From the IMG/VR virus record IMGVR_UViG_2541047885_000017, positions 1-11,845 of that record: a DNA stretch of 11,845 nucleotides, one strand, 5' to 3'. This DNA comes from a virus. Its lineage: Duplodnaviria; Heunggongvirae; Uroviricota; Caudoviricetes. The notes beneath the pieces were generated by a model, which did not search any database, was not told the DNA's origin, and saw only the letters and a program-made list of their open reading frames with translations. Position numbers and translations under genes: made by a program. How positions within the stretch are numbered: position 1 is the first letter of the stretch; each line of letters opens with the position of its first letter. Below are positions 1-10,660 of the stretch, piece after piece.

Positions 1-162
1 AGTTTGCTCCTGCCATAACGTGAAGAAGCAATGACCTGGTGGTCCGTGACTTCCCTACGCTGGCATTATCCAGATCAGGTGATACGGGTATTTCTTACTA
101 ATTTTTGTTATCAGTTGATAATTAATAAGTTTTTCAGCATACAAGAATTAAAAACCTCAAAA

Positions 163-187
163 CTGACCACACAACTGACCACACATT
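163..187. repeat. Tandem direct repeat, two copies of a 12-13 bp unit (AACTGACCACACA)
   Basis: Read directly: aactgaccacaca at 163-175 is followed immediately by actgaccacaca at 176-187. Function unknown; it lies in the non-coding end beyond the large terminase gene. Confidence 0.5.
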
Positions 188-708: not shown

Positions 709-2370
709 TTACACACCATCAAACGCCGCAAGCCGCTCTTTGTGGCTGTCGCTCATATCAAATGCAAATTCCTCATGCTCTGCCTGGAATGTGCCAAACG
801 CCATCAGCGCCGCAACGCTCGGGTCTATCTTGTTGGATGATTTTTTCTTGTTCGGCTTGATATTGGCGTTCGCGTCACTCTGCATCACAACATTACTCAT
901 TGACCAGGCCAGCACCGGATCACCACGATGCACAATCACCTTCCGGTTAACAAAAACTTCGAACGATTTCGCCGCCGGACTGAAACGAAGGTATGTTTGC
1001 GGGAACGGCTCCACCTCAAATCCTGCCCCCTGTAGCTGCGTCCTCAGGTGCGTGGCGTTCCATGTATCGAAGCCCACCAGCCTGATATTGAAATTCTCTG
1101 CATCCGCCATGATGTCATCACGGATACGGTCATAATCAATGCAGTCACCCGGTGTTGTGCGTATCCAGCCCGCCTTTACCCACTGGCGATAGATGGCGCG
1201 GTTTTTATTGGCGGGGTTCTGTAGCTGAAATTCCGGCAGATAGTGACGGGAAACCAGCATAATCTTTTTACCGACCGGAAAGGCATAGCACACGCTGGAA
1301 ATATCGCTGGTTGATGATAAGTCCAGCCCCGCGTAGCACTCCTGCCCGTATAAATCCGCCTCCGCGAACGTTCCGGCGCACTCCGCCCATGCACCGTTAC
1401 CCATCCACGGCGTAGCCCCCTGACACCAGATATTGAATCGCTTGGTGAGCATTTCCACCCACTGCGACGGAATACCCCGCGCTTTCTGGATGGTTGAGGC
1501 CAGTTTTTCACGATCGACGGAAACATCGATATTTGGATTCGCCTTTATCCACATCGCCGGATCGTCAACCTCGCTTTCATCATCCAGCTCGTAAATCAGA
1601 ACGAACATGGATTCGTTCATCTCTTCACCATCCAGTATCTGACAGCAATAGTCATAGTGTTGTTTACAGGCTGAAACAACGTTGCTCCCCGATGTGGTGA
1701 TGGCAAATAACAGCCCCTCCGGACGCGCCCCCATCCCCATATCAAGTGCGGAATAAACCCCGTTGTCTGGGTGCAGGTGATATTCATCCACAATGGCAAG
1801 ACTCGGGTTTGTCCCCTCAATGGTTGCCGCTTTTGCTGCCAGTGGCTTTAACAGGCTGTTGGTTTTCGGGTGTATCACCTTATGCGCCTGAATATTCACC
1901 CGCCTGCGTAACGGTCGGGATAAAAGGCACATCTGACGCGCATCATCAAAGACGATCCGCGCCTGGTCACGGCTCACCGCTGCGGTGTAGATATCCTGCT
2001 GACCGTTCTCCATAATCAAAAACCAGTTAGCCAGAATCGCGGCGGTCGTGGATTTCGCATTTTTGCGCGGCACTTCGATAAAGGCGCTCGTGTATTTGCG
2101 CCGTCCGGTGGCCTTAACCTTAAAGCCGAGGATGCACGCAAAGGCGAACTGCTGCCACGGCTCCAGCTCAATGGGTCTGCCACGCATCGGCCCTTTTACG
2201 TGCGGGCACACCCTGGAAAAGGCAATAAACCGCTCCACAACCTCACGATCGAACGTGTAAAGGGGGCTTTCAAGGTCCGAAAAGTACCGTTTAACGGCCT
2301 GTTTCAGCCGTTTACAGGCCGGAATTTTGCCCGTTTTTACGTCTTCTGCGTACTTATTCCAGGCGGTCAA
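709..2370 (-). CDS. terL: Phage terminase large subunit (ATPase/nuclease)
   Basis: 553-aa ORF. N-terminus MTAWNKYAEDVKTGKIPACKRLKQAVKRYF is typical of large terminases; P-loop-like PRKNAKSTTAAILANW; length and position after the small terminase fit. Starts at a TTG codon preceded by AAGAGGA with a 5-nt spacer, and overlaps the small terminase 3' end by 17 nt. Confidence 0.9.
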   Translation of the reverse strand: MTAWNKYAEDVKTGKIPACKRLKQAVKRYFSDLESPLYTFDREVVERFIAFSRVCPHVKGPMRGRPIELEPWQQFAFACILGFKVKATGRRKYTSAFIEVPRKNAKSTTAAILANWFLIMENGQQDIYTAAVSRDQARIVFDDARQMCLLSRPLRRRVNIQAHKVIHPKTNSLLKPLAAKAATIEGTNPSLAIVDEYHLHPDNGVYSALDMGMGARPEGLLFAITTSGSNVVSACKQHYDYCCQILDGEEMNESMFVLIYELDDESEVDDPAMWIKANPNIDVSVDREKLASTIQKARGIPSQWVEMLTKRFNIWCQGATPWMGNGAWAECAGTFAEADLYGQECYAGLDLSSTSDISSVCYAFPVGKKIMLVSRHYLPEFQLQNPANKNRAIYRQWVKAGWIRTTPGDCIDYDRIRDDIMADAENFNIRLVGFDTWNATHLRTQLQGAGFEVEPFPQTYLRFSPAAKSFEVFVNRKVIVHRGDPVLAWSMSNVVMQSDANANIKPNKKKSSNKIDPSVAALMAFGTFQAEHEEFAFDMSDSHKERLAAFDGV

Positions 2371-2710
2371 GCTCGTCCTCTTCTTCTGTTTCCGGTGGAT
2401 TTTTACGGCGGCTTATCGGGTCAAAACCGAGCAAGGAGGCCATTTTTATCATCACTCTTTCAGCGTCGGATTTTGCGCTTAATGCGGGGTTTCTGCTCTC
2501 GCCGCCCTGACTGTTAACAATGCTGAACCCGCGCGCCGCAAGGTCTGCGACGGCTTTCCGGTAAATGGAGTAGTTGACACAATACAGTTCCAGATTGCTC
2601 CAGTCGGCGGGGGTCAGGTCTCCCCGTTCCGCAAGCTGCCGCGATTTTTCCCGCCACTGCTTCACGGCGATATCATCCAGGTAGGCGGGGGCTTTCGGTG
2701 GTCTTGCCAT
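2354..2710 (-). CDS. terS: Phage terminase small subunit, P27 family
   Basis: 118-aa ORF MARPPKAPAYLDD...LELYCVNYSIYRKAVADLAARG...MASLLGFDPISRRK with acidic C-terminus, matching the P27-type small terminase pattern; sits immediately upstream of terL. The sequence just upstream of the ATG is a weak Shine-Dalgarno. Confidence 0.85.
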   Translation of the reverse strand: MARPPKAPAYLDDIAVKQWREKSRQLAERGDLTPADWSNLELYCVNYSIYRKAVADLAARGFSIVNSQGGESRNPALSAKSDAERVMIKMASLLGFDPISRRKNPPETEEEDELDRLE

Positions 2711-2998
2711 GCTTATTTTTCGTCAGATTATTTTTCAAAAAATTCCCGTGCATAAAAATTTGAGGAGGTGGTCGGTGTCCGGCAGGGACGGTTTCGTCCT
2801 GAAAACCTCCCCCACCCCCTCTGACGACTTCACCAGCGATTGCGAAAACATTCCATGACCTCGCGGTCACGGTCGGTTAATCGCTTCGCTGTGGTGCGTT
2901 CTATGCGTCCTGTCCTGTTGGCTTTGTGCCCTGTCTCCTGTGTCTTCCATAAGTCACGCTGCCTTATCAGTCCACGTATCAGCCTGTTTTGCTCCTGT
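2711..2998. other. Non-coding gap between HNH and terS; candidate cos/packaging-initiation region
   Basis: 288 bp without a convincing gene in an otherwise overlapping operon. Contains an imperfect hairpin cagggacggtttcgtcctg (2783-2801), a C-rich tract cctcccccaccccctc (2807-2822) and GAGGAGG (2763-2769). Position matches where HK97-like phages carry cos (between HNH and terS in the circular map). Assignment is by analogy only. Confidence 0.3.
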
Positions 2999-3439
2999 TC
3001 AGTCATCATCGCCATACATCCAGTCGTTACGATGTGCCGCCCGTTCTTCCTGCTCGCGATACATGCCCGCCTTACGGTTCGCTTTCGTGGCTGGATCTTC
3101 CCGTGTCGTCTTACGGTTGTGGCACGTCTGGCACAATGCCTGATGGTTCCACTCAGGCCAGAAGAGAACATCACCACCGCCATTGATGGGGATAATGTGA
3201 TCCACCACAAAGGCTGGCGTATAAATACCCTCAGCCAGACAACGCACACATAACGGATTTTTTTTCAGGTACAGGGCGCGATATTTGTCCCACTGTCGGG
3301 AATACCCGCGCGCGCGGCGGTGTCCTCGTCTGGCATCCTCTGCACGCCATGCCGCCCGCCTGTGCTCCTCACACTTGCCGGACTTCACGCGCCTGTTACA
3401 GCCTGGTTCTGTGCATCGTCTTAATGGTTGCCACGGCAT
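2999..3439 (-). CDS. HNH endonuclease (terminase-associated)
   Basis: 146-aa ORF with N-terminal Cys-rich MPWQPLRRCTEPGCNRRVKSGKCEEHRR and an HNH core LCVRCLAEG...VVDHIIPINGGGDVLFWPEWNHQALCQTCHNRKT. Start overlaps the stop of the upstream connector gene by 1 nt (TGATG). Confidence 0.85.
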   Translation of the reverse strand: MPWQPLRRCTEPGCNRRVKSGKCEEHRRAAWRAEDARRGHRRARGYSRQWDKYRALYLKKNPLCVRCLAEGIYTPAFVVDHIIPINGGGDVLFWPEWNHQALCQTCHNRKTTREDPATKANRKAGMYREQEERAAHRNDWMYGDDD

Positions 3440-3735
3440 CAGTACACCCCCACATCACGATAAACCGACCAGAGCGCGGAAATCGTCAGGGGAATTTCTT
3501 TTGTATCTGTATCGCCAAGCGTTGTCCGGTACTCGTACAGTTGCGAGATGTACATCAGGCAGCCAATTTTTATTGCAGGGGTAAATTCCAGGCCATCATC
3601 AAAACGCCTACCAATATGTTTCTGACATACCTCCAGCGCCGCGCTTATGTATGCCTGAATCAGTGTGTCTTCTGTGTTACCGTCTATGCGGCAGTGAAGT
3701 TTGGCTTCTTCCAGGGTTATTTTTTCTGCTGTCAT
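3439..3735 (-). CDS. Head-tail connector protein (gp6-like, DNA-packaging/head completion)
   Basis: 98-aa ORF MTAEKITLEEAKLHCRIDGNTEDTLIQAYISAALEVCQKHIGRRF, the characteristic N-terminal pattern of gp6-like head-tail connectors. 4-nt ATGA-type overlap with the upstream gene. Confidence 0.7.
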   Translation of the reverse strand: MTAEKITLEEAKLHCRIDGNTEDTLIQAYISAALEVCQKHIGRRFDDGLEFTPAIKIGCLMYISQLYEYRTTLGDTDTKEIPLTISALWSVYRDVGVY

Positions 3736-4070
3736 TTTTCTGTACCCACCTTTGCCAGAATTTCCAGCCGGGTTCTTTTCGCATCAGGTAAGGGGATCCC
3801 GATGATATTAAGCATGCTCCCGGCAAAAGCACCGGTAAGCACTTTCAGTCGACTGGCGGCGGATATGTCGCCACGATAGCGAACCCATACCCGAATCGTT
3901 GCAGGTGCGGTTTCTGCGCCTGCGGTCAGTAATTCCCGTCCGCTGATCCCCTTGACCTCTGCCCAGATGGTTTCCCCTTCCGTCCATATCTGCCGGATCG
4001 CTCCTGACGGCAGGCGCTGCGTGATAAATGTCATAATCGTCACCCGGTCCCGCATATTTCCGGCTATCAT
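3732..4070 (-). CDS. Head-tail adaptor / head closure protein
   Basis: 112-aa ORF in the position and size range of phage head-tail joining proteins, directly after the portal. Start ATG overlaps the portal stop (ATGA). Assigned by size, context and general resemblance, not a diagnostic motif. Confidence 0.6.
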   Translation of the reverse strand: MIAGNMRDRVTIMTFITQRLPSGAIRQIWTEGETIWAEVKGISGRELLTAGAETAPATIRVWVRYRGDISAASRLKVLTGAFAGSMLNIIGIPLPDAKRTRLEILAKVGTEK

Positions 4071-5290
4071 TCGTCACCGCCCTGACTGTTCTTGCTGATT
4101 GTCACTTCCTGCTTCCATGCCTGGCTGAACTCGTCGCCACCTTCACGCGGCGGCATTCCCTCACGCTCACGGGCTTCGTTCGGATTCATGATCCCGTTCT
4201 TAATCCCTTTCTCATACGTGGCGTAACGTTCGGTAGGGGTGGCGCGTAATAAATCAGCTGAATCAAACTCAACCAAATAACGGGTACCGGGTACGGGAGA
4301 AGCCACCAGCAAAGCGGCCTTGATTTGCTGTTCGAAGTTCGCCAGCCACGGGCGCATTGTCATGGTCAGAAACGCGCGGCTTGCCTCGCTGAAATTGCTG
4401 TAGGTGCTGTTGCTGTATTCCTGCAGAAAAATAGGCGATACGTTGAACATCCGGGCGATGTCTTCAATGGAGAAGCGACGGGAGGCCAGCCATTCCGCAT
4501 CCTGGTTACTCATTCCCAGTTGCTTGTAATCCATGCCCCCTTCAAGGATTGGCGTTTTTCCGGCATTTTTCGCCCCCTTGTAGCGTTCCAGAGCATCCAA
4601 TGCCTGTTTACCTTTCACGCCGTCCAGCCATTCGCCTGACGTGATAATCCCTGCCGCCATCATGCCATCTTTCATAATGCTGGCTCCGTGGCGCTGTTGA
4701 GCAAGGCCAAGCCCAAGTGCCTCACGGCAAATCGTGACAGGGGAGCGCCCCAGAAAGCCATCATCCGAGGCATAGCGGAGATGCAGAACTTCTTCCTGTA
4801 AATACGTGCGCACCGTTCCTGTATAGGGTTCGGTGATGGTATAGCGGTATTTGTGTGCGCCTGTGCGTTCCGGTACAACACAACCCGGTGCATAAGGATG
4901 AAGTGATTTTGGCTGACCGTCCCGCCCCCACTCAATAACCGCATAGGCGTTACCGTTCAGCAGGCAGTGACGCATCATTGTGCGTTTAAACTGGTAAGGT
5001 GTCTGGCACGAATTAGGCTGCTCATTCAGCAGAATATCTACCGGATGACTGTCCAGCCATTCCCGCGCCTCCCTGCCCTTGTCATTACGTACCAGATACA
5101 GATAACAAGGCATCGTGGCCACCGCCTCAGCGATGACAGAAACCGCGTTCATCACTGCAGGCAATGATTCAGCCGTCCCGGCAGAAACATATTCTCCGGA
5201 TCCGGTATTCGGTACGCCGGCCAGCGCCAGAAAATCATCAATGGACAGGTTACGTTGCTCACTTTTTTTACGACTAAAAGGCCACCACAT
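4067..5290 (-). CDS. Phage portal protein, HK97 family
   Basis: The track ORF (4067-5380) carries a Cys-rich 30-aa N-terminal extension that overlaps the protease gene. The Met at 5290 (MWWPFSRKKSEQ...) lies 1 nt after the protease stop and gives about 407 aa, typical portal length. The assignment rests on that length and on the conserved position between prohead protease and head-tail connector genes; no diagnostic motif was identified. Confidence 0.85.
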   Translation of the reverse strand: MWWPFSRKKSEQRNLSIDDFLALAGVPNTGSGEYVSAGTAESLPAVMNAVSVIAEAVATMPCYLYLVRNDKGREAREWLDSHPVDILLNEQPNSCQTPYQFKRTMMRHCLLNGNAYAVIEWGRDGQPKSLHPYAPGCVVPERTGAHKYRYTITEPYTGTVRTYLQEEVLHLRYASDDGFLGRSPVTICREALGLGLAQQRHGASIMKDGMMAAGIITSGEWLDGVKGKQALDALERYKGAKNAGKTPILEGGMDYKQLGMSNQDAEWLASRRFSIEDIARMFNVSPIFLQEYSNSTYSNFSEASRAFLTMTMRPWLANFEQQIKAALLVASPVPGTRYLVEFDSADLLRATPTERYATYEKGIKNGIMNPNEAREREGMPPREGGDEFSQAWKQEVTISKNSQGGDE

Positions 5291-5291
5291 A

Positions 5292-5852
5292 TCACAACCC
5301 CGCCAGCTCTGCCCAGCGATGACGATTATTTCCTGCCGGGCGTAATTCAGGGTGCAGTGCAAACAACGAACGGTGGGCAATCTCCACGCCAGATTCTGGA
5401 TAAGCAGGCATCGACGTTATCGTGATTTCACGGAGTTCTGCGGCGGTAACAGTGCGCAGATACGGTTTTTGCGCGATATTCCACTCCTCGCATAATGCGC
5501 GAAAGCCAAAGCTCATTCCTGTAATGTCGCCCCGCTCCACCAGCGTAAGCACATCTTTCCCAAGCTGGGTATCCGGCGGTGTCAGTTCAAAACGTAACCC
5601 GGTGTTATCCTCAGTCAGTACCAGAGTGCCGGATTTGGTACGCCCCAGCAGTCGGGTACAGTCATGCTCATACAGGCAGCGCACATCATTACCCGCAGCC
5701 AGATAGTCAGCAAAAGCCCCCGGCGTGAACTGTTCGCGGAACTCATCCCAGATAATTTCTGAAAGGCTGTTCCAGCGAACGGCATACCCCACCAGCTTTT
5801 TATTGCTGGCGGTCAGTTCAGATGTGCGGATTTCAAAATCGGTGTTTTTCAT
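5292..5852 (-). CDS. Prohead maturation protease, HK97 family (S78-like)
   Basis: 186-aa ORF MKNTDFEIRTSELTASNKKLVGYAVRWNS...CLYEHD...GDITGMSFGF: typical length, His-containing and GxSxG-like serine motifs, and position between capsid and portal. Confidence 0.9.
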   Translation of the reverse strand: MKNTDFEIRTSELTASNKKLVGYAVRWNSLSEIIWDEFREQFTPGAFADYLAAGNDVRCLYEHDCTRLLGRTKSGTLVLTEDNTGLRFELTPPDTQLGKDVLTLVERGDITGMSFGFRALCEEWNIAQKPYLRTVTAAELREITITSMPAYPESGVEIAHRSLFALHPELRPAGNNRHRWAELAGL

Positions 5853-5906: not shown

Positions 5907-7076
5907 CTAGCCAGCTTTCATTTCCAGAATTTTGATGGCGTTTGAATCCACCACACCACCGCCCAGATATTTATCCGTGTGGACCTTGTAGAATCCGGGT
6001 TCAGTAATGTTGTCCGGTCGGGTGCGAATACCCGTTACATGATCAACGATGAAATAACCACGACTGAAATCACCAACCGCGAGCGGTGCTTTTCCTGCGC
6101 CGATGTCCGGCATGGACTCCAGGCAGTAAACAGGACGACCAAGCAACATATCCGGCGCACCTTCTTTAAGGCTGTCGCGCCAGATATAATCTCCATTCTC
6201 ATTTTTCAGCTTCTGTAGTGTCCCTGCCGTGCCCGAGTTCATCACCCAGACGGCATTTTTGCGGTATTTCGCTTTCAGCTTGTAGAGAATGTCGATCAGT
6301 TCGTCCGCTGTAATGGAGGTTCCACTTGCCGCTACCATTTTTTCAATGGTGCCAAAAGCGCGGGTTTTGTCACTGGTCGCTGCACGGGTGTAAGCCATGA
6401 AGCCTTTCGGCTTGCCGTTACCGTCGCCATTAACAAAATCATCCTCTTCGGTGCTGGCGAACGTGTCGGCAATTTCGGAGGATAACCAGCCCAGAATATC
6501 CACCTCTGAAAAATCCAGGATTTCCTGCGTGGTTTTCGGGTAGGCGTAGATCGGATTCAGCTTGATGGTTACGCGTTCAATTTTCGGGGTGTTGGTTTCG
6601 CTGCGCGCGCTGCCTTCTGTGCCTCGTCCTACAGTTGCGCCGCCAGTGGAAACCAGTTTCTGAAACTCATTTGATTTTGCGGTCTTCACGGTCGCGATCA
6701 CGCGCATAACACTGTCATCCTGTAGCTGGCGCATGACTTCGCGATCAAGCTCAGGAATTACGGTATATCCGCCATCCCTGCCGCTGTCAGTGCTGGTGGA
6801 CAGTGATCGCACATCTCCGGTTACGATGTAGTTACGCAATTCATCAGATGATAATTTCTGGATGCCCGTTCCTGGCTTGCTGCGTTCTTCATCAGCCACA
6901 GACTCGAGGCGGGAAATTTCTGTGTCGAGGGAATCGGCTTTTGCACGCAGTTCATCAAACTGTTTGCCCTCGTCATCGTTCAGGCTGCGGTTTTCACTGT
7001 CGGCTTTTTCCAGCAGGGATCGCATCTGGTTTTTCAGGGCGGTTTTTTGCTGGCGGAGTTCGATTAATTTCTTCAT
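5907..7076 (-). CDS. Major capsid protein, HK97 fold, with N-terminal delta/scaffold domain
   Basis: 389-aa ORF. The first 100 or so residues are a coiled-coil-like charged region (MKKLIELRQQKTALKNQMRSLLEKADSENRSL...), as in HK97-type capsid delta domains, followed by a capsid-sized body; adjacent to the prohead protease. Confidence 0.9.
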   Translation of the reverse strand: MKKLIELRQQKTALKNQMRSLLEKADSENRSLNDDEGKQFDELRAKADSLDTEISRLESVADEERSKPGTGIQKLSSDELRNYIVTGDVRSLSTSTDSGRDGGYTVIPELDREVMRQLQDDSVMRVIATVKTAKSNEFQKLVSTGGATVGRGTEGSARSETNTPKIERVTIKLNPIYAYPKTTQEILDFSEVDILGWLSSEIADTFASTEEDDFVNGDGNGKPKGFMAYTRAATSDKTRAFGTIEKMVAASGTSITADELIDILYKLKAKYRKNAVWVMNSGTAGTLQKLKNENGDYIWRDSLKEGAPDMLLGRPVYCLESMPDIGAGKAPLAVGDFSRGYFIVDHVTGIRTRPDNITEPGFYKVHTDKYLGGGVVDSNAIKILEMKAG

Positions 7077-7940: not shown

Positions 7941-8366
7941 TTAAAACGGTATCCCGTCCCCGTACGGGTCATCGTGCTGGCTTGTCTGTTGTTTTGCCCT
8001 GTTCAGTGCGTCAGTGTCCTGGCCCTGTTGACCTTTTTTGCCGCCCGGTCGCGCCGTTCGCGCACTGATTACGCTGTCTGCAATAACCTGCCAGCCCTGC
8101 CGCGTTTCCCCGTTCTGGCCTGTCCACTGGCTCACCTGCATTGTGCCGGATACGCTGGCAACATCGCCTTTGTGGTGTTTAGCCAGGAAGTCAGCCTGTT
8201 TGCCAAATGCGATGACCGACAACCACAACGTCGCCTGTCCGTCCTGTGCCTGACTGCATGGCAGTGATACCGCCATACGCGCCAGCGTCATCGGTGTGCC
8301 CTTGCTGGTCTGTTTTACCTGCGGGTCGTCCACCAGCCGCCCGTAAGCGGCTATCTGTGCTGTCAT
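7941..8366 (-). CDS. ssb: Single-stranded DNA-binding protein
   Basis: 141-aa ORF. The OB-fold region aligns by eye with E. coli SSB (GRLVDDPQV vs GNLGQDPEV; WLSVIAFGKQADFLAKHHKGDVASVSGTMQVSQWTGQNGE vs [41 protein letters not shown]). Gly/Gln-rich linker and acidic tail ending DGIPF (cf. DDDIPF). Strong RBS GGAGAGG. Confidence 0.85.
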   Translation of the reverse strand: MTAQIAAYGRLVDDPQVKQTSKGTPMTLARMAVSLPCSQAQDGQATLWLSVIAFGKQADFLAKHHKGDVASVSGTMQVSQWTGQNGETRQGWQVIADSVISARTARPGGKKGQQGQDTDALNRAKQQTSQHDDPYGDGIPF

Positions 8367-8905: not shown

Positions 8906-10660
8906 TTATAAAAACGCGTCGCAATCGTCTGTTGTAATTGCGTTGGTCTGCGTTACTCCCTTAACTTTTCGCGTAATATATTCATGTCCGTAAACTTTCG
9001 CCGCTGGCTTCATGGCCTTGCTGAACTCAGCCACGTTTAGCGGTTTGCTCCTGCCTGCGTATGCCATAAACGCCAGATAGACGCGGTAAAGGCTGTTTCT
9101 GGTCGTGTACCTGGAAGAGTCACCGCCGCCGCCCATCATCAGGCCGCGTGCTTCTTCCAGAAAGTTAAGGAACTGGCAAAACTCAATAACCGGATCCGTC
9201 TGTTGCTTTATTGCCAGTGCTTCATCACCGTCACGCTGTTCCAGTAGTAAAGCCCGTGCCTTCTCAGGGTCGGTAAAGTTCGCCAGCAATCGGCGGATAA
9301 TGACAGGGATTTCAGCCGCGATCTTTTCCGGTAGCTCCCTGTCTTTTTCGGCCTCACTGACGATATTGTCGAAACGGAAAATCACGCGACGACGTGCCAC
9401 ACCTCCGGCCCGTTCGGTGAATATCATCGGGTTATTATTGGTTGCCAGCACAACCGCCCTGATTACCGCTGTGAAACGCTTTTCATATTTCGGGTTGATT
9501 TCCACGGGGTCGCCGCCCGTGATTTTCTTGATGCCCGTGCCTTCGCCTGTATATTTCGGCTGGTCTGCCAGGACGATAAGACGACTCCCGACAACCTGCG
9601 CACGTCCACCAGCATCATCAAGCGATGTCATTTCAGCGCTTACCGTGTTTTGTTTCCCTGCCAGAAGGCTGGCTATGTGTGTGAATGTACTTTTACCGCT
9701 CCCGCCGTCTCCGGTGGCCTCAATAAACATCTGCCAGTCGTACCGGTTCGCCATAATCATGTACAGCGCGGCACATATACGCATCATCTTGCGCGGGTCT
9801 TTTCCGGCTGCGTGCTCAAGCCATTTATGAAAGTTTGGCGCGTTGTCGCGGATGTTCTCCCCTGGTGCTGCTGGCGTGTACTCAATGCCGTTGTGCGTGG
9901 TGATCCAGTTCTCCGGCGTGTGCGGGGAAAATTCCCCCGTTTTCAGGTCAAGCGCACCATTGGCGAACGGCAGCAAATCGCCGGACGGCTCGCCCATTGG
10001 TTCGGCAATAACTTTTAACGCTTCCACGGCGTTATTGATTACGCGCTTGCTGAAAGTGGCCCTGTGCTCTGAATAGATCGCCACCATTTCGCGGCTAAGT
10101 TCCATTGTGCTGACCGGACACCATACCCCGCCGCGCCATACGTGAACGATTTCACTTTCAGGATGTACGCAAACGCCATCAAAGCGATCGGCAAGCAGCT
10201 GCGCGCGCTCACTGTCCGCCATCTGCGAAAGTTGCGCCTTTTGCTTTACCGGAAGCTCAATAACCAGACCATCAGAAAGATTCTGGCGTTCACGGGCCAG
10301 ATATTCGCGCCAGTTCTGCACCTCCTGGCCGTGCATACCCTCAGGATAAAAATTTGCATCCTGTACGCCTGCCGCCGCCAGCTTCTGACCAATCGCCTTT
10401 ATCATTACAGGCGCAAGATATCCGGCCCTGTATATGCGTGCTGATTTTCGGCCTTCCGGCACAATTTGCAGATTATCCAGTTCGGATAGCTGCTGCTCCC
10501 CAAGCCACACAGGAGGCTCATTATCTCCGGCCATACGCGCATCATGTTCCTGCCATTGTTTCGCGTGTGACCAGGCATCACTACCCGCAAAAATAATGAC
10601 TTCTGTTTCTTTGTGTTTTATGCCGCGTGACTGCTGTTTTACGTTCGGTGCCAGTTTCAT
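8906..10660 (-). CDS. Replication initiator: P4/D5-family DNA primase-helicase (SF3-type P-loop NTPase)
   Basis: 584-aa ORF. Walker A ATGDGGSGKST; hydrophobic strand RLIVLADQ, Walker B-like; D5_N-like segment LPFANGALDLKTGEF. Start has AGGGG with a 5-nt spacer and overlaps the upstream ORF stop (ATGA). Confidence 0.85.
   Translation of the reverse strand: MKLAPNVKQQSRGIKHKETEVIIFAGSDAWSHAKQWQEHDARMAGDNEPPVWLGEQQLSELDNLQIVPEGRKSARIYRAGYLAPVMIKAIGQKLAAAGVQDANFYPEGMHGQEVQNWREYLARERQNLSDGLVIELPVKQKAQLSQMADSERAQLLADRFDGVCVHPESEIVHVWRGGVWCPVSTMELSREMVAIYSEHRATFSKRVINNAVEALKVIAEPMGEPSGDLLPFANGALDLKTGEFSPHTPENWITTHNGIEYTPAAPGENIRDNAPNFHKWLEHAAGKDPRKMMRICAALYMIMANRYDWQMFIEATGDGGSGKSTFTHIASLLAGKQNTVSAEMTSLDDAGGRAQVVGSRLIVLADQPKYTGEGTGIKKITGGDPVEINPKYEKRFTAVIRAVVLATNNNPMIFTERAGGVARRRVIFRFDNIVSEAEKDRELPEKIAAEIPVIIRRLLANFTDPEKARALLLEQRDGDEALAIKQQTDPVIEFCQFLNFLEEARGLMMGGGGDSSRYTTRNSLYRVYLAFMAYAGRSKPLNVAEFSKAMKPAAKVYGHEYITRKVKGVTQTNAITTDDCDAFL

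Follow-up and report, generated by a model that had tools for sequence, protein, structure and literature searches.

The window, by which we mean the whole 11,845-nt stretch of DNA analysed here, carries a series of genes on its minus strand that could be assigned by Pfam searches. A D5-type primase/helicase (8906–10660) and an SSB (7941–8366) are followed by the major capsid protein (5907–7076), a prohead protease (5292–5852), the portal (4067–5380), head-completion/connector proteins (3732–4070 and 3439–3735), and an HNH endonuclease of 146 residues (2999–3439; Pfam HNH PF01844, E = 2.5e-9; PHROG 144). The last two genes encode a P27-family small terminase of 118 residues, terS (2354–2710; Pfam Terminase_4, E = 1.3e-23; PHROG 83), and a large terminase of 553 residues, terL (709–2370; PF03354 TerL_ATPase, E = 7e-26; PF20441 TerL_nuclease, E = 1.7e-52). 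We take the latter two domains to be of the type found in HK97 gp2.

The order capsid, protease, portal, head connectors, hnh, terS, terL, in which all eight genes are identified by Pfam and lie on the minus strand, is that of the capsid-forming PICI satellites (cf-PICIs) found in Proteobacteria (bioRxiv 10.1101/2022.09.08.507074). Based on this match in gene content and order, the element in the window is a cf-PICI and not a phage. Two such satellites, EcCIEDL933 and KpCIDSM30104, have been shown to be induced by a helper phage and to be packaged in small capsids of their own (bioRxiv 10.1101/2022.09.08.507074; bioRxiv 10.1101/2025.02.11.637232). Islands of this kind measure 10–18 kb and carry a replication module and an integrase but no genes for tails or lysis. 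Tail or lysis genes were found nowhere among the window ORFs examined. The integrase end of the island lies beyond the window edge; in close relatives of the island, in E. coli genomes, the integrase gene is located approximately 12 kb upstream. The HNH–terS region is present in 514 of 5426 complete E. coli genomes at 80–98% identity, always in the chromosome and in up to 5 copies per genome. This distribution and the cf-PICI gene order show that the packaging operon of the original prediction belongs to the satellite and not to an HK97-family phage. No close phage relatives with mapped ends were found, the best TerL match to a true phage in the phage collection being 37% identical. A blastn search of the same collection with the DNA of the interval between the HNH and terS genes matched only three records, namely vB_KppS-Ant (see below), a short lysate contig, and, in part, a Klebsiella phage record of 106 kb.

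The left end of the window (approximately 1–100) is a thiM leader, in which only the 3′ half of the TPP aptamer is present (35–169, minus strand). The TPP riboswitch scores 36.5 bits against an Rfam threshold of 54.3 bits, island DNA having replaced the 5′ half of the aptamer. This end of the island also borders thiM–thiD in E. coli CEA106S, so that the island in the window seems to have inserted within the thiM riboswitch. A closely related island in E. coli strain 10 (NZ_CP048330.1, 8858–11771) directly adjoins a 5′-truncated prophage terL, after which HK97-type portal, protease, capsid, and tail genes follow. This arrangement suggests that the strain 10 variant, unlike the island in the window with its thiM-leader site, sits inside a prophage large-terminase gene.

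The HNH stop codon at 2999 and the terS start at 2710 are separated by 288 nt (2711–2998), as had been predicted, and the remaining junctions of the operon are indeed overlaps or short spacers. The proposal that this gap is non-coding did not hold, as about 60% of it is occupied by a conserved gene for a small, basic protein of 58 residues (2830–3006, minus strand), identified by a match to PHROG 3173 (E = 5e-29), by an NCBI PGAP call, and by its pattern of substitution. In three lineages, the dN/dS ratio is 0.23–0.28 in frame, compared with 1.0–2.3 in the other two frames. PGAP annotates the gene in E. coli genomes in a 61-residue form starting at 3015, and a very diverged Klebsiella version also matches PHROG 3173. 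The gene overlaps the HNH stop by 8 nt (ATGACTGA), which is the style of coupling seen elsewhere in the operon. It is open in nearly all of about 90 loci, and its length variants are all in frame. The protein has no Pfam match, and its homologues are all annotated as hypothetical. The AlphaFold2 model (pLDDT 77) consists of two helices, comprising residues 3–29 and 45–55, with a disordered basic linker between them.

In a minority of islands (loci L005, L052, L063, and L082), the small gene carries a frameshift or an identical CGA-to-TGA nonsense codon, and the Pasteurella relatives Pmp7 and Pmp8 do not have it. In light of these alleles and of its absence from Pasteurella, the gene is dispensable in some settings; otherwise, the minority mutant copies are decaying. 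Since 2830–3006 is coding, the true intergenic DNA comprises only the 119 nt from 2711 to 2829.

To describe this DNA, we aligned loci found by TerS and HNH protein homology and then collected 112 unique haplotypes by motif. Identity at terS third-codon positions served as a neutral yardstick and amounted to 0.51 for K. pneumoniae ATCC 13883 and 0.27–0.35 for Pmp7 and Pmp8. Read on the minus strand, the region contains two nearly invariant blocks. Block 1 (2796–2819), GGGGGTGGGGGAGGTTTTCAGGAC, consists of a G-run and GTTTTCAGGAC. It occurs once in the window, is identical to the K. pneumoniae ATCC 13883 sequence at 23 of its 24 positions, and was found in every lineage retrieved through protein homology. 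Block 2 (2728–2778), ACACCGACCACCTCCTCAAATTTTTATGCACGGGAATTTTTTGAAAAATAA, is built as CCTCCTCAAATTTTT-N2-GCACGG-N2-T-tract and is identical to the Klebsiella sequence at 40 and to the Pasteurella sequence at 39 of its 51 positions (76–78%); its core likewise occurs once in the window. The GCACGG-N2-T-tract portion is nearly invariant in 110 haplotypes and is kept in Pasteurella. Between block 2 and the terS ATG lies a variable run.

The blocks are separated by a 17-nt spacer (2779–2795, minus strand), which has the lowest information content of the region and matches Klebsiella at 9 and Pasteurella at 4 of its 17 positions, which is approximately the neutral level. The distance between the blocks, however, is exactly equal in 110 of the 112 unique haplotypes, so that the constraint on the spacer acts on its length and not on its sequence. 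With respect to the Pasteurella elements, whose TerS and TerL are 61% and 69% identical to those of the window, the register is ungapped throughout the region, and both these elements and HK97 carry a G-run in the same register as block 1. Judged by sequence comparison, both blocks are conserved far above neutral expectation across Escherichia, Klebsiella, and Pasteurella elements.

The two Pasteurella elements, retrieved by protein similarity, are deposited as phages Pmp8 (OR544139.1, 1130–1300) and Pmp7 (OR544138.1, 666–870) with lengths of 10.7 and 15.3 kb. They share the portal/connector/HNH/terS/terL layout, the G-run, and a CAAATTTTTACGCAAGG-T-tract signal, and both display a perfect palindrome, CCCCAATTTTGGGG, after the HNH stop.

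Two further features of the intergenic DNA were considered. The imperfect hairpin of the original prediction does exist, with arms CAGGAC and GTCCCTG at 2783–2801, but it is not conserved; other lineages lack its 3′ arm, which falls within the hypervariable spacer. The intergenic region of the window is also bracketed by a perfect 8-nt inverted repeat, TCGTCAGA/TCTGACGA (2720–2727 and 2820–2827), which is likewise not conserved in other lineages and is probably due to chance or a by-product of mosaicism.

The window is itself a recombinant of two E. coli lineages, as seen over 2354–3439, with the junction at 2754–2770. One lineage type accounts for the HNH gene, which is 97–99% identical to loci such as L084, and for the small gene, block 1, and the spacer. 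The other accounts for all DNA from position 2753 up to and including terS, with a TerS 100% identical to that of loci such as L004–L016. Recombination mapping showed four-gamete incompatibilities everywhere, and mutual information revealed a weak split in linkage around block 2.

The ends of a relative obtained from particles provide information that does not depend on conservation. LR881103, deposited as Escherichia phage vB_KppS-Ant, is a linear record of 16.5 kb. It was recovered from a K. pneumoniae DSM 30104 lysate and shares over 99% identity with the chromosome of that strain; its terS is 83–84% identical to terS of the window. The record is an unrotated raw SPAdes contig assembled from Nextera XT reads of particle DNA, and both its ends lie inside the HNH–terS interval. 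It starts with ACGAAAAGGAAAACAGTAAGTT-ATG, 22 nt before terS, to which the ATG belongs, and finishes with ...GGGGTGGGGGAGGTTTTCAGGAC, at ...GTTTTCAGGAC. In the integrated copy of K. pneumoniae ATCC 13883, which we take to be the same strain as DSM 30104, 69 extra nucleotides, GAACACGAGGGCGCCAGGCACCACCCGCCCCCTCAAATTTTTTCGCACGGTGATTTTTTTGAAAATAAA, are present between these two ends. Block 2 falls within this segment, whose centre is CCCTC-A-AATTT, equivalent to window position 2761.

Tagmentation misses the tips of linear molecules, and a circular or permuted molecule would be assembled across the point in question. DNA with defined ends at a given site would accordingly be expected to yield a linear contig with a short stretch missing there. 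This reading assumes a loss of about 30–35 nt per end, which is plausible for tagmentation. Coming from the assembly of a relative, the ends of LR881103 indicate, indirectly and independently of the conservation argument, that the termini of its packaged DNA lie in the interval. The KpCIDSM30104 island, that is, the locus of LR881103 and ATCC 13883, carries the same two blocks, as does a lysate contig of E. coli ATCC 43895, presumably strain EDL933. Packaged KpCIDSM30104 DNA has been reported to form concatemers via cohesive cos ends (bioRxiv 10.1101/2025.02.11.637232).

The gene content of LR881103 is that of a cf-PICI and includes capsid, portal, protease, HNH, terminases, integrase, and primase. 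In its own paper, it was described as a filamentous ssDNA prophage. The deposited filamentous ssDNA phage vB_KppS-Ant is a packaged cf-PICI and matches the KpCIDSM30104 island of ATCC 13883 (NZ_KN046818.1, locus 3540–3900).

Contig ends were also used as a proxy for termini in protein-based and motif scans of IMG/VR and in a motif scan of metagenome contigs. Among about 27 genuine metagenomic copies, all were intact and none ended inside the interval. The IMG/VR contigs are mostly prophage calls from isolate genomes, and the few that end in the interval stop at the edge of a conserved block. As such stops are expected from repeat-induced assembly breaks, IMG/VR contig ends were rejected as physical ends.

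To place a possible cut within the interval, we compared it with the cos site of HK97. There, the DNA is cut between the genes for gp74 (HNH) and gp1 (TerS), leaving a 10-nt 3′ overhang, and the TerS site extends from +15 to +29, within which the G:C pair at +21 is critical and positions +24 to +29 form an A-tract (PMC11331095, PMC9410871). Cleavage of cos is stimulated by gp74 (PMC9410871). The ends of the HK97 record agree with the mapped cut (...CAGGGCAGGGGGGGGG-42 nt-...GACCGCCGCCAAA / GTTTGAATTTAACGCTAACCCGATTTTTTT) and reveal that a G-run precedes the cut by 42 nt and that a G/C cluster with a T-tract begins 23 nt beyond it. The distance from G-run to T-tract is 63–66 nt in the window and 65 nt in both HK97 and Pmp8. 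Projecting the HK97 cut from either landmark leads to window positions 2763–2766, in CCTCCTCAAATTTTT and at most 5 nt from the centre of the 69-nt segment.

The similarity in sequence between the two sites is marginal, since about 3% of dinucleotide shuffles score as well, and for one lineage the alignment is not significant. Homology in sequence to the HK97 cos was therefore rejected and the comparison was kept as a geometric analogy only. With a marginal alignment and small terminases that are unrelated in sequence, we use HK97 as a working model for how the site may function, not as proof that the sites share common descent.

From the centre of the 69-nt segment, the HK97 geometry, and the recombination junction of the window, which falls in the invariant core at the same place, we infer a staggered cut of both strands within 2755–2770, the best estimate being 2761–2766 in CCTCCTCAAATTTTT. 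By analogy with the +15 to +29 region of HK97, GCACGG-N2-TTTTTT(T) (2736–2751, minus strand) is a candidate TerS-binding site. The G-rich run to which the original prediction had drawn attention, GAGGGGGTGGGGGAGG on the coding strand at 2806–2821, is conserved, but it does not fit the role of cleavage site. As judged from the HK97 analogy and the centre of the 69-nt segment, the G-run and block 1 are likely to flank the cleavage site, which would lie about 45 nt further downstream, rather than to contain it.

A cos site in this region could also be nicked in the 17-nt spacer (2779–2795), in which case the two blocks would be flanking protein sites and the sequence of the overhang would be free. 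Such a position would explain why the spacer is free in sequence and fixed in length, and the LR881103 contig stops exactly at the boundary between block 1 and the spacer. However, since tagmentation misses the tips, the duplex must have continued beyond block 1 for the contig to extend to the final base of this block. A cut in the spacer would, moreover, require a loss of more than 50 nt from the left end and almost none from the right end, and the HK97 geometry puts the cut about 20–30 nt further downstream. We consider nicking in the spacer improbable and retain the predicted cut near 2761–2766.

The intergenic DNA lies directly upstream of terS, and it could therefore be imagined to control terS and terL, either as an internal promoter or operator or as an attenuator in which the G-run pairs with CCTCCTC and is followed by a U-run. 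The G-rich and C-rich runs could pair in principle and are followed by AAATTTTT, and the single-strand fold has a z-score of −2.45. Yet neither a coding-strand sigma-70-like promoter nor a terminator was called within 2711–2829, the interval matches no Rfam family, and RNAalifold gives a covariation term of −0.28 and finds a single compensatory pair among 18. On these grounds, an RNA element, a promoter, and a terminator were ruled out, and the sequence data place the constraint on the DNA itself, that is, on double-stranded sequence and spacing as in protein-binding sites. A loop, furthermore, needs no exact length, whereas the spacing of the blocks is fixed in 110 of 112 haplotypes, and control of terS and terL would leave the break in the particle-derived assembly at this very point unexplained. 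A control element is thus very unlikely.

Another non-coding feature of the island is a repeat array at 445–640, downstream of terL, which corresponds to the region (452–632) that the original prediction had named as an alternative location of the termini. Three GCGGGTTAT-type repeats (471–503) face three TAACCCGCAA repeats (577–629), and an AT-rich palindrome, TTTTTCGTATATATATATACAAAA (445–470), is located just upstream of the GCGGGTTAT-type set. Owing to its iteron-like form beside an AT-rich region, the array is a candidate replication origin or operator. Headful packaging from a pac site, or a cos elsewhere such as in this array, is extremely unlikely, since, striking as the array is among the non-coding features of the element, its inverted iterons around an AT-rich palindrome resemble an origin or operator rather than a cos, the combination of HNH and HK97-type TerL is a signature of cos packaging (PMC12967558), cohesive ends have been reported for a related cf-PICI (bioRxiv 10.1101/2025.02.11.637232), and LR881103 is linear with its ends in the HNH–terS interval.

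For a terminase of this type, a cos between HNH and terS is the expected arrangement. PMC12967558 traces the link between HNH, HK97-type TerL, and cos packaging to Kala et al. 2014 and Quiles-Puchalt et al. 2014. Cohesive-end cos sites are an established property of cf-PICIs but were left unmapped in two studies that describe these satellites (bioRxiv 10.1101/2022.09.08.507074; bioRxiv 10.1101/2025.02.11.637232). The linear ends of the relative, the cohesive ends, the two conserved blocks, and the HK97-like layout all support the proposed location of a cos between the HNH and terS genes. We consider it probable that the window contains the packaging end of a cf-PICI, in which the HNH–terS interval comprises the small gene (2830–3006) followed by the island's own cos with a core at 2728–2819, operating by a mechanism such as the following.

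The P27-family TerS would bind the GCACGG-N2-T-tract of block 2 (2736–2751), just inside the end that is packaged first. TerL and HNH would then make staggered nicks a few turns upstream of the TerS site, in or near CCTCCTCAAATTTTT (approximately 2761–2766, within 2755–2770), with a division of labour as in Kala et al. 2014 and Quiles-Puchalt et al. 2014 (via PMC12967558). Packaging would run from terS through terL and round the island, and the next cos would be cut once it is reached. Block 1, located some 45 nt ahead of the cut at the end packaged last, may be a recognition or termination flank analogous to lambda cosQ or, alternatively, a site at which HNH or the small protein would dock. 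The 17-nt spacer would only set the distance between the blocks.

A more far-reaching idea, which we offer as speculation that is rather unlikely to hold as a whole, is that the cf-PICI cos is a private bipartite signal whose blocks, kept at constant spacing by a neutral spacer, are each recognised by a different protein, block 2 by TerS and block 1 by HNH or the PHROG 3173 protein. This arrangement, conserved from Pasteurellaceae to Enterobacteriaceae, would make packaging of the satellite exclusive of the helper, the small gene would encode a satellite-specific factor for packaging specificity, and the joining of cos ends between co-resident islands would give rise to mosaics with junctions at the cut.

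cf-PICIs spread between species by packaging only their own DNA, for which they use capsids of their own, and the DNA side of this specificity is provided by the cos site. The present analysis offers a concrete candidate of about 90 bp, with coordinates for the predicted cut, the putative TerS site, and the G-run at its flank, which could be used to construct minimal transducible plasmids, to test cross-compatibility between islands and helpers, to spot packaged ends in virome data, and to annotate islands correctly. It also corrects the gene map, in that a conserved small gene is present in the supposed gap.

Comparison with known systems shows where the module resembles them and where it differs. 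Like the cos of HK97, the candidate site lies between the HNH and terS genes, and the HNH protein of the window is homologous to gp74 (36% identity, BLASTP E = 3e-17). The landmarks are collinear, a G-run being followed after about 65 nt by a G/C cluster and T-tract, and a C-rich ...CC..CAAA motif is found at the HK97 cut position as well. In contrast, TerS of the window is of the P27 family (Terminase_4), whereas HK97 gp1 has no Pfam match, and BLASTP between the two gives an E-value of 2.4. A small gene between HNH and cos is present in the island only, and the carrier is a satellite whose TerL is no more than 37% identical to that of any phage in the collection. The module would work like that of HK97 but is not a straightforward member of this type at the level of TerS.

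The cosQ–cosN–cosB plan of phage lambda is the general one proposed here for the island. In this plan, the nicking site has an element upstream of it, towards the end packaged last, and a region for the small terminase downstream, towards the end packaged first, and block 1 may by this analogy be cosQ-like. There is, however, no relationship in sequence or protein family between lambda and the island, and the lambda cos requires no HNH protein and is cut to give 5′ overhangs (PMC9410871). In the Staphylococcus phages phi12 and phiSLT and the satellite SaPIbov5, as proposed for the island, HNH, TerS, and TerL are required for cos cleavage and a satellite is packaged via cos (bioRxiv 10.1101/2022.09.08.507074, PMC12967558). 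SaPIbov5 differs in that it makes use of the cos and the terminase of its helper, whereas the island in the window encodes its own HNH, TerS, and TerL. Apart from the partial match to the 106-kb Klebsiella record, only satellite-like records of the phage collection matched its cos sequence.

The cf-PICIs EcCIEDL933 and KpCIDSM30104 have the same gene order and content as the island in the window, which is a different mosaic allele and is integrated in the thiM leader. The bipartite anatomy with fixed spacing, conserved from Pasteurellaceae to Enterobacteriaceae, is a useful refinement.
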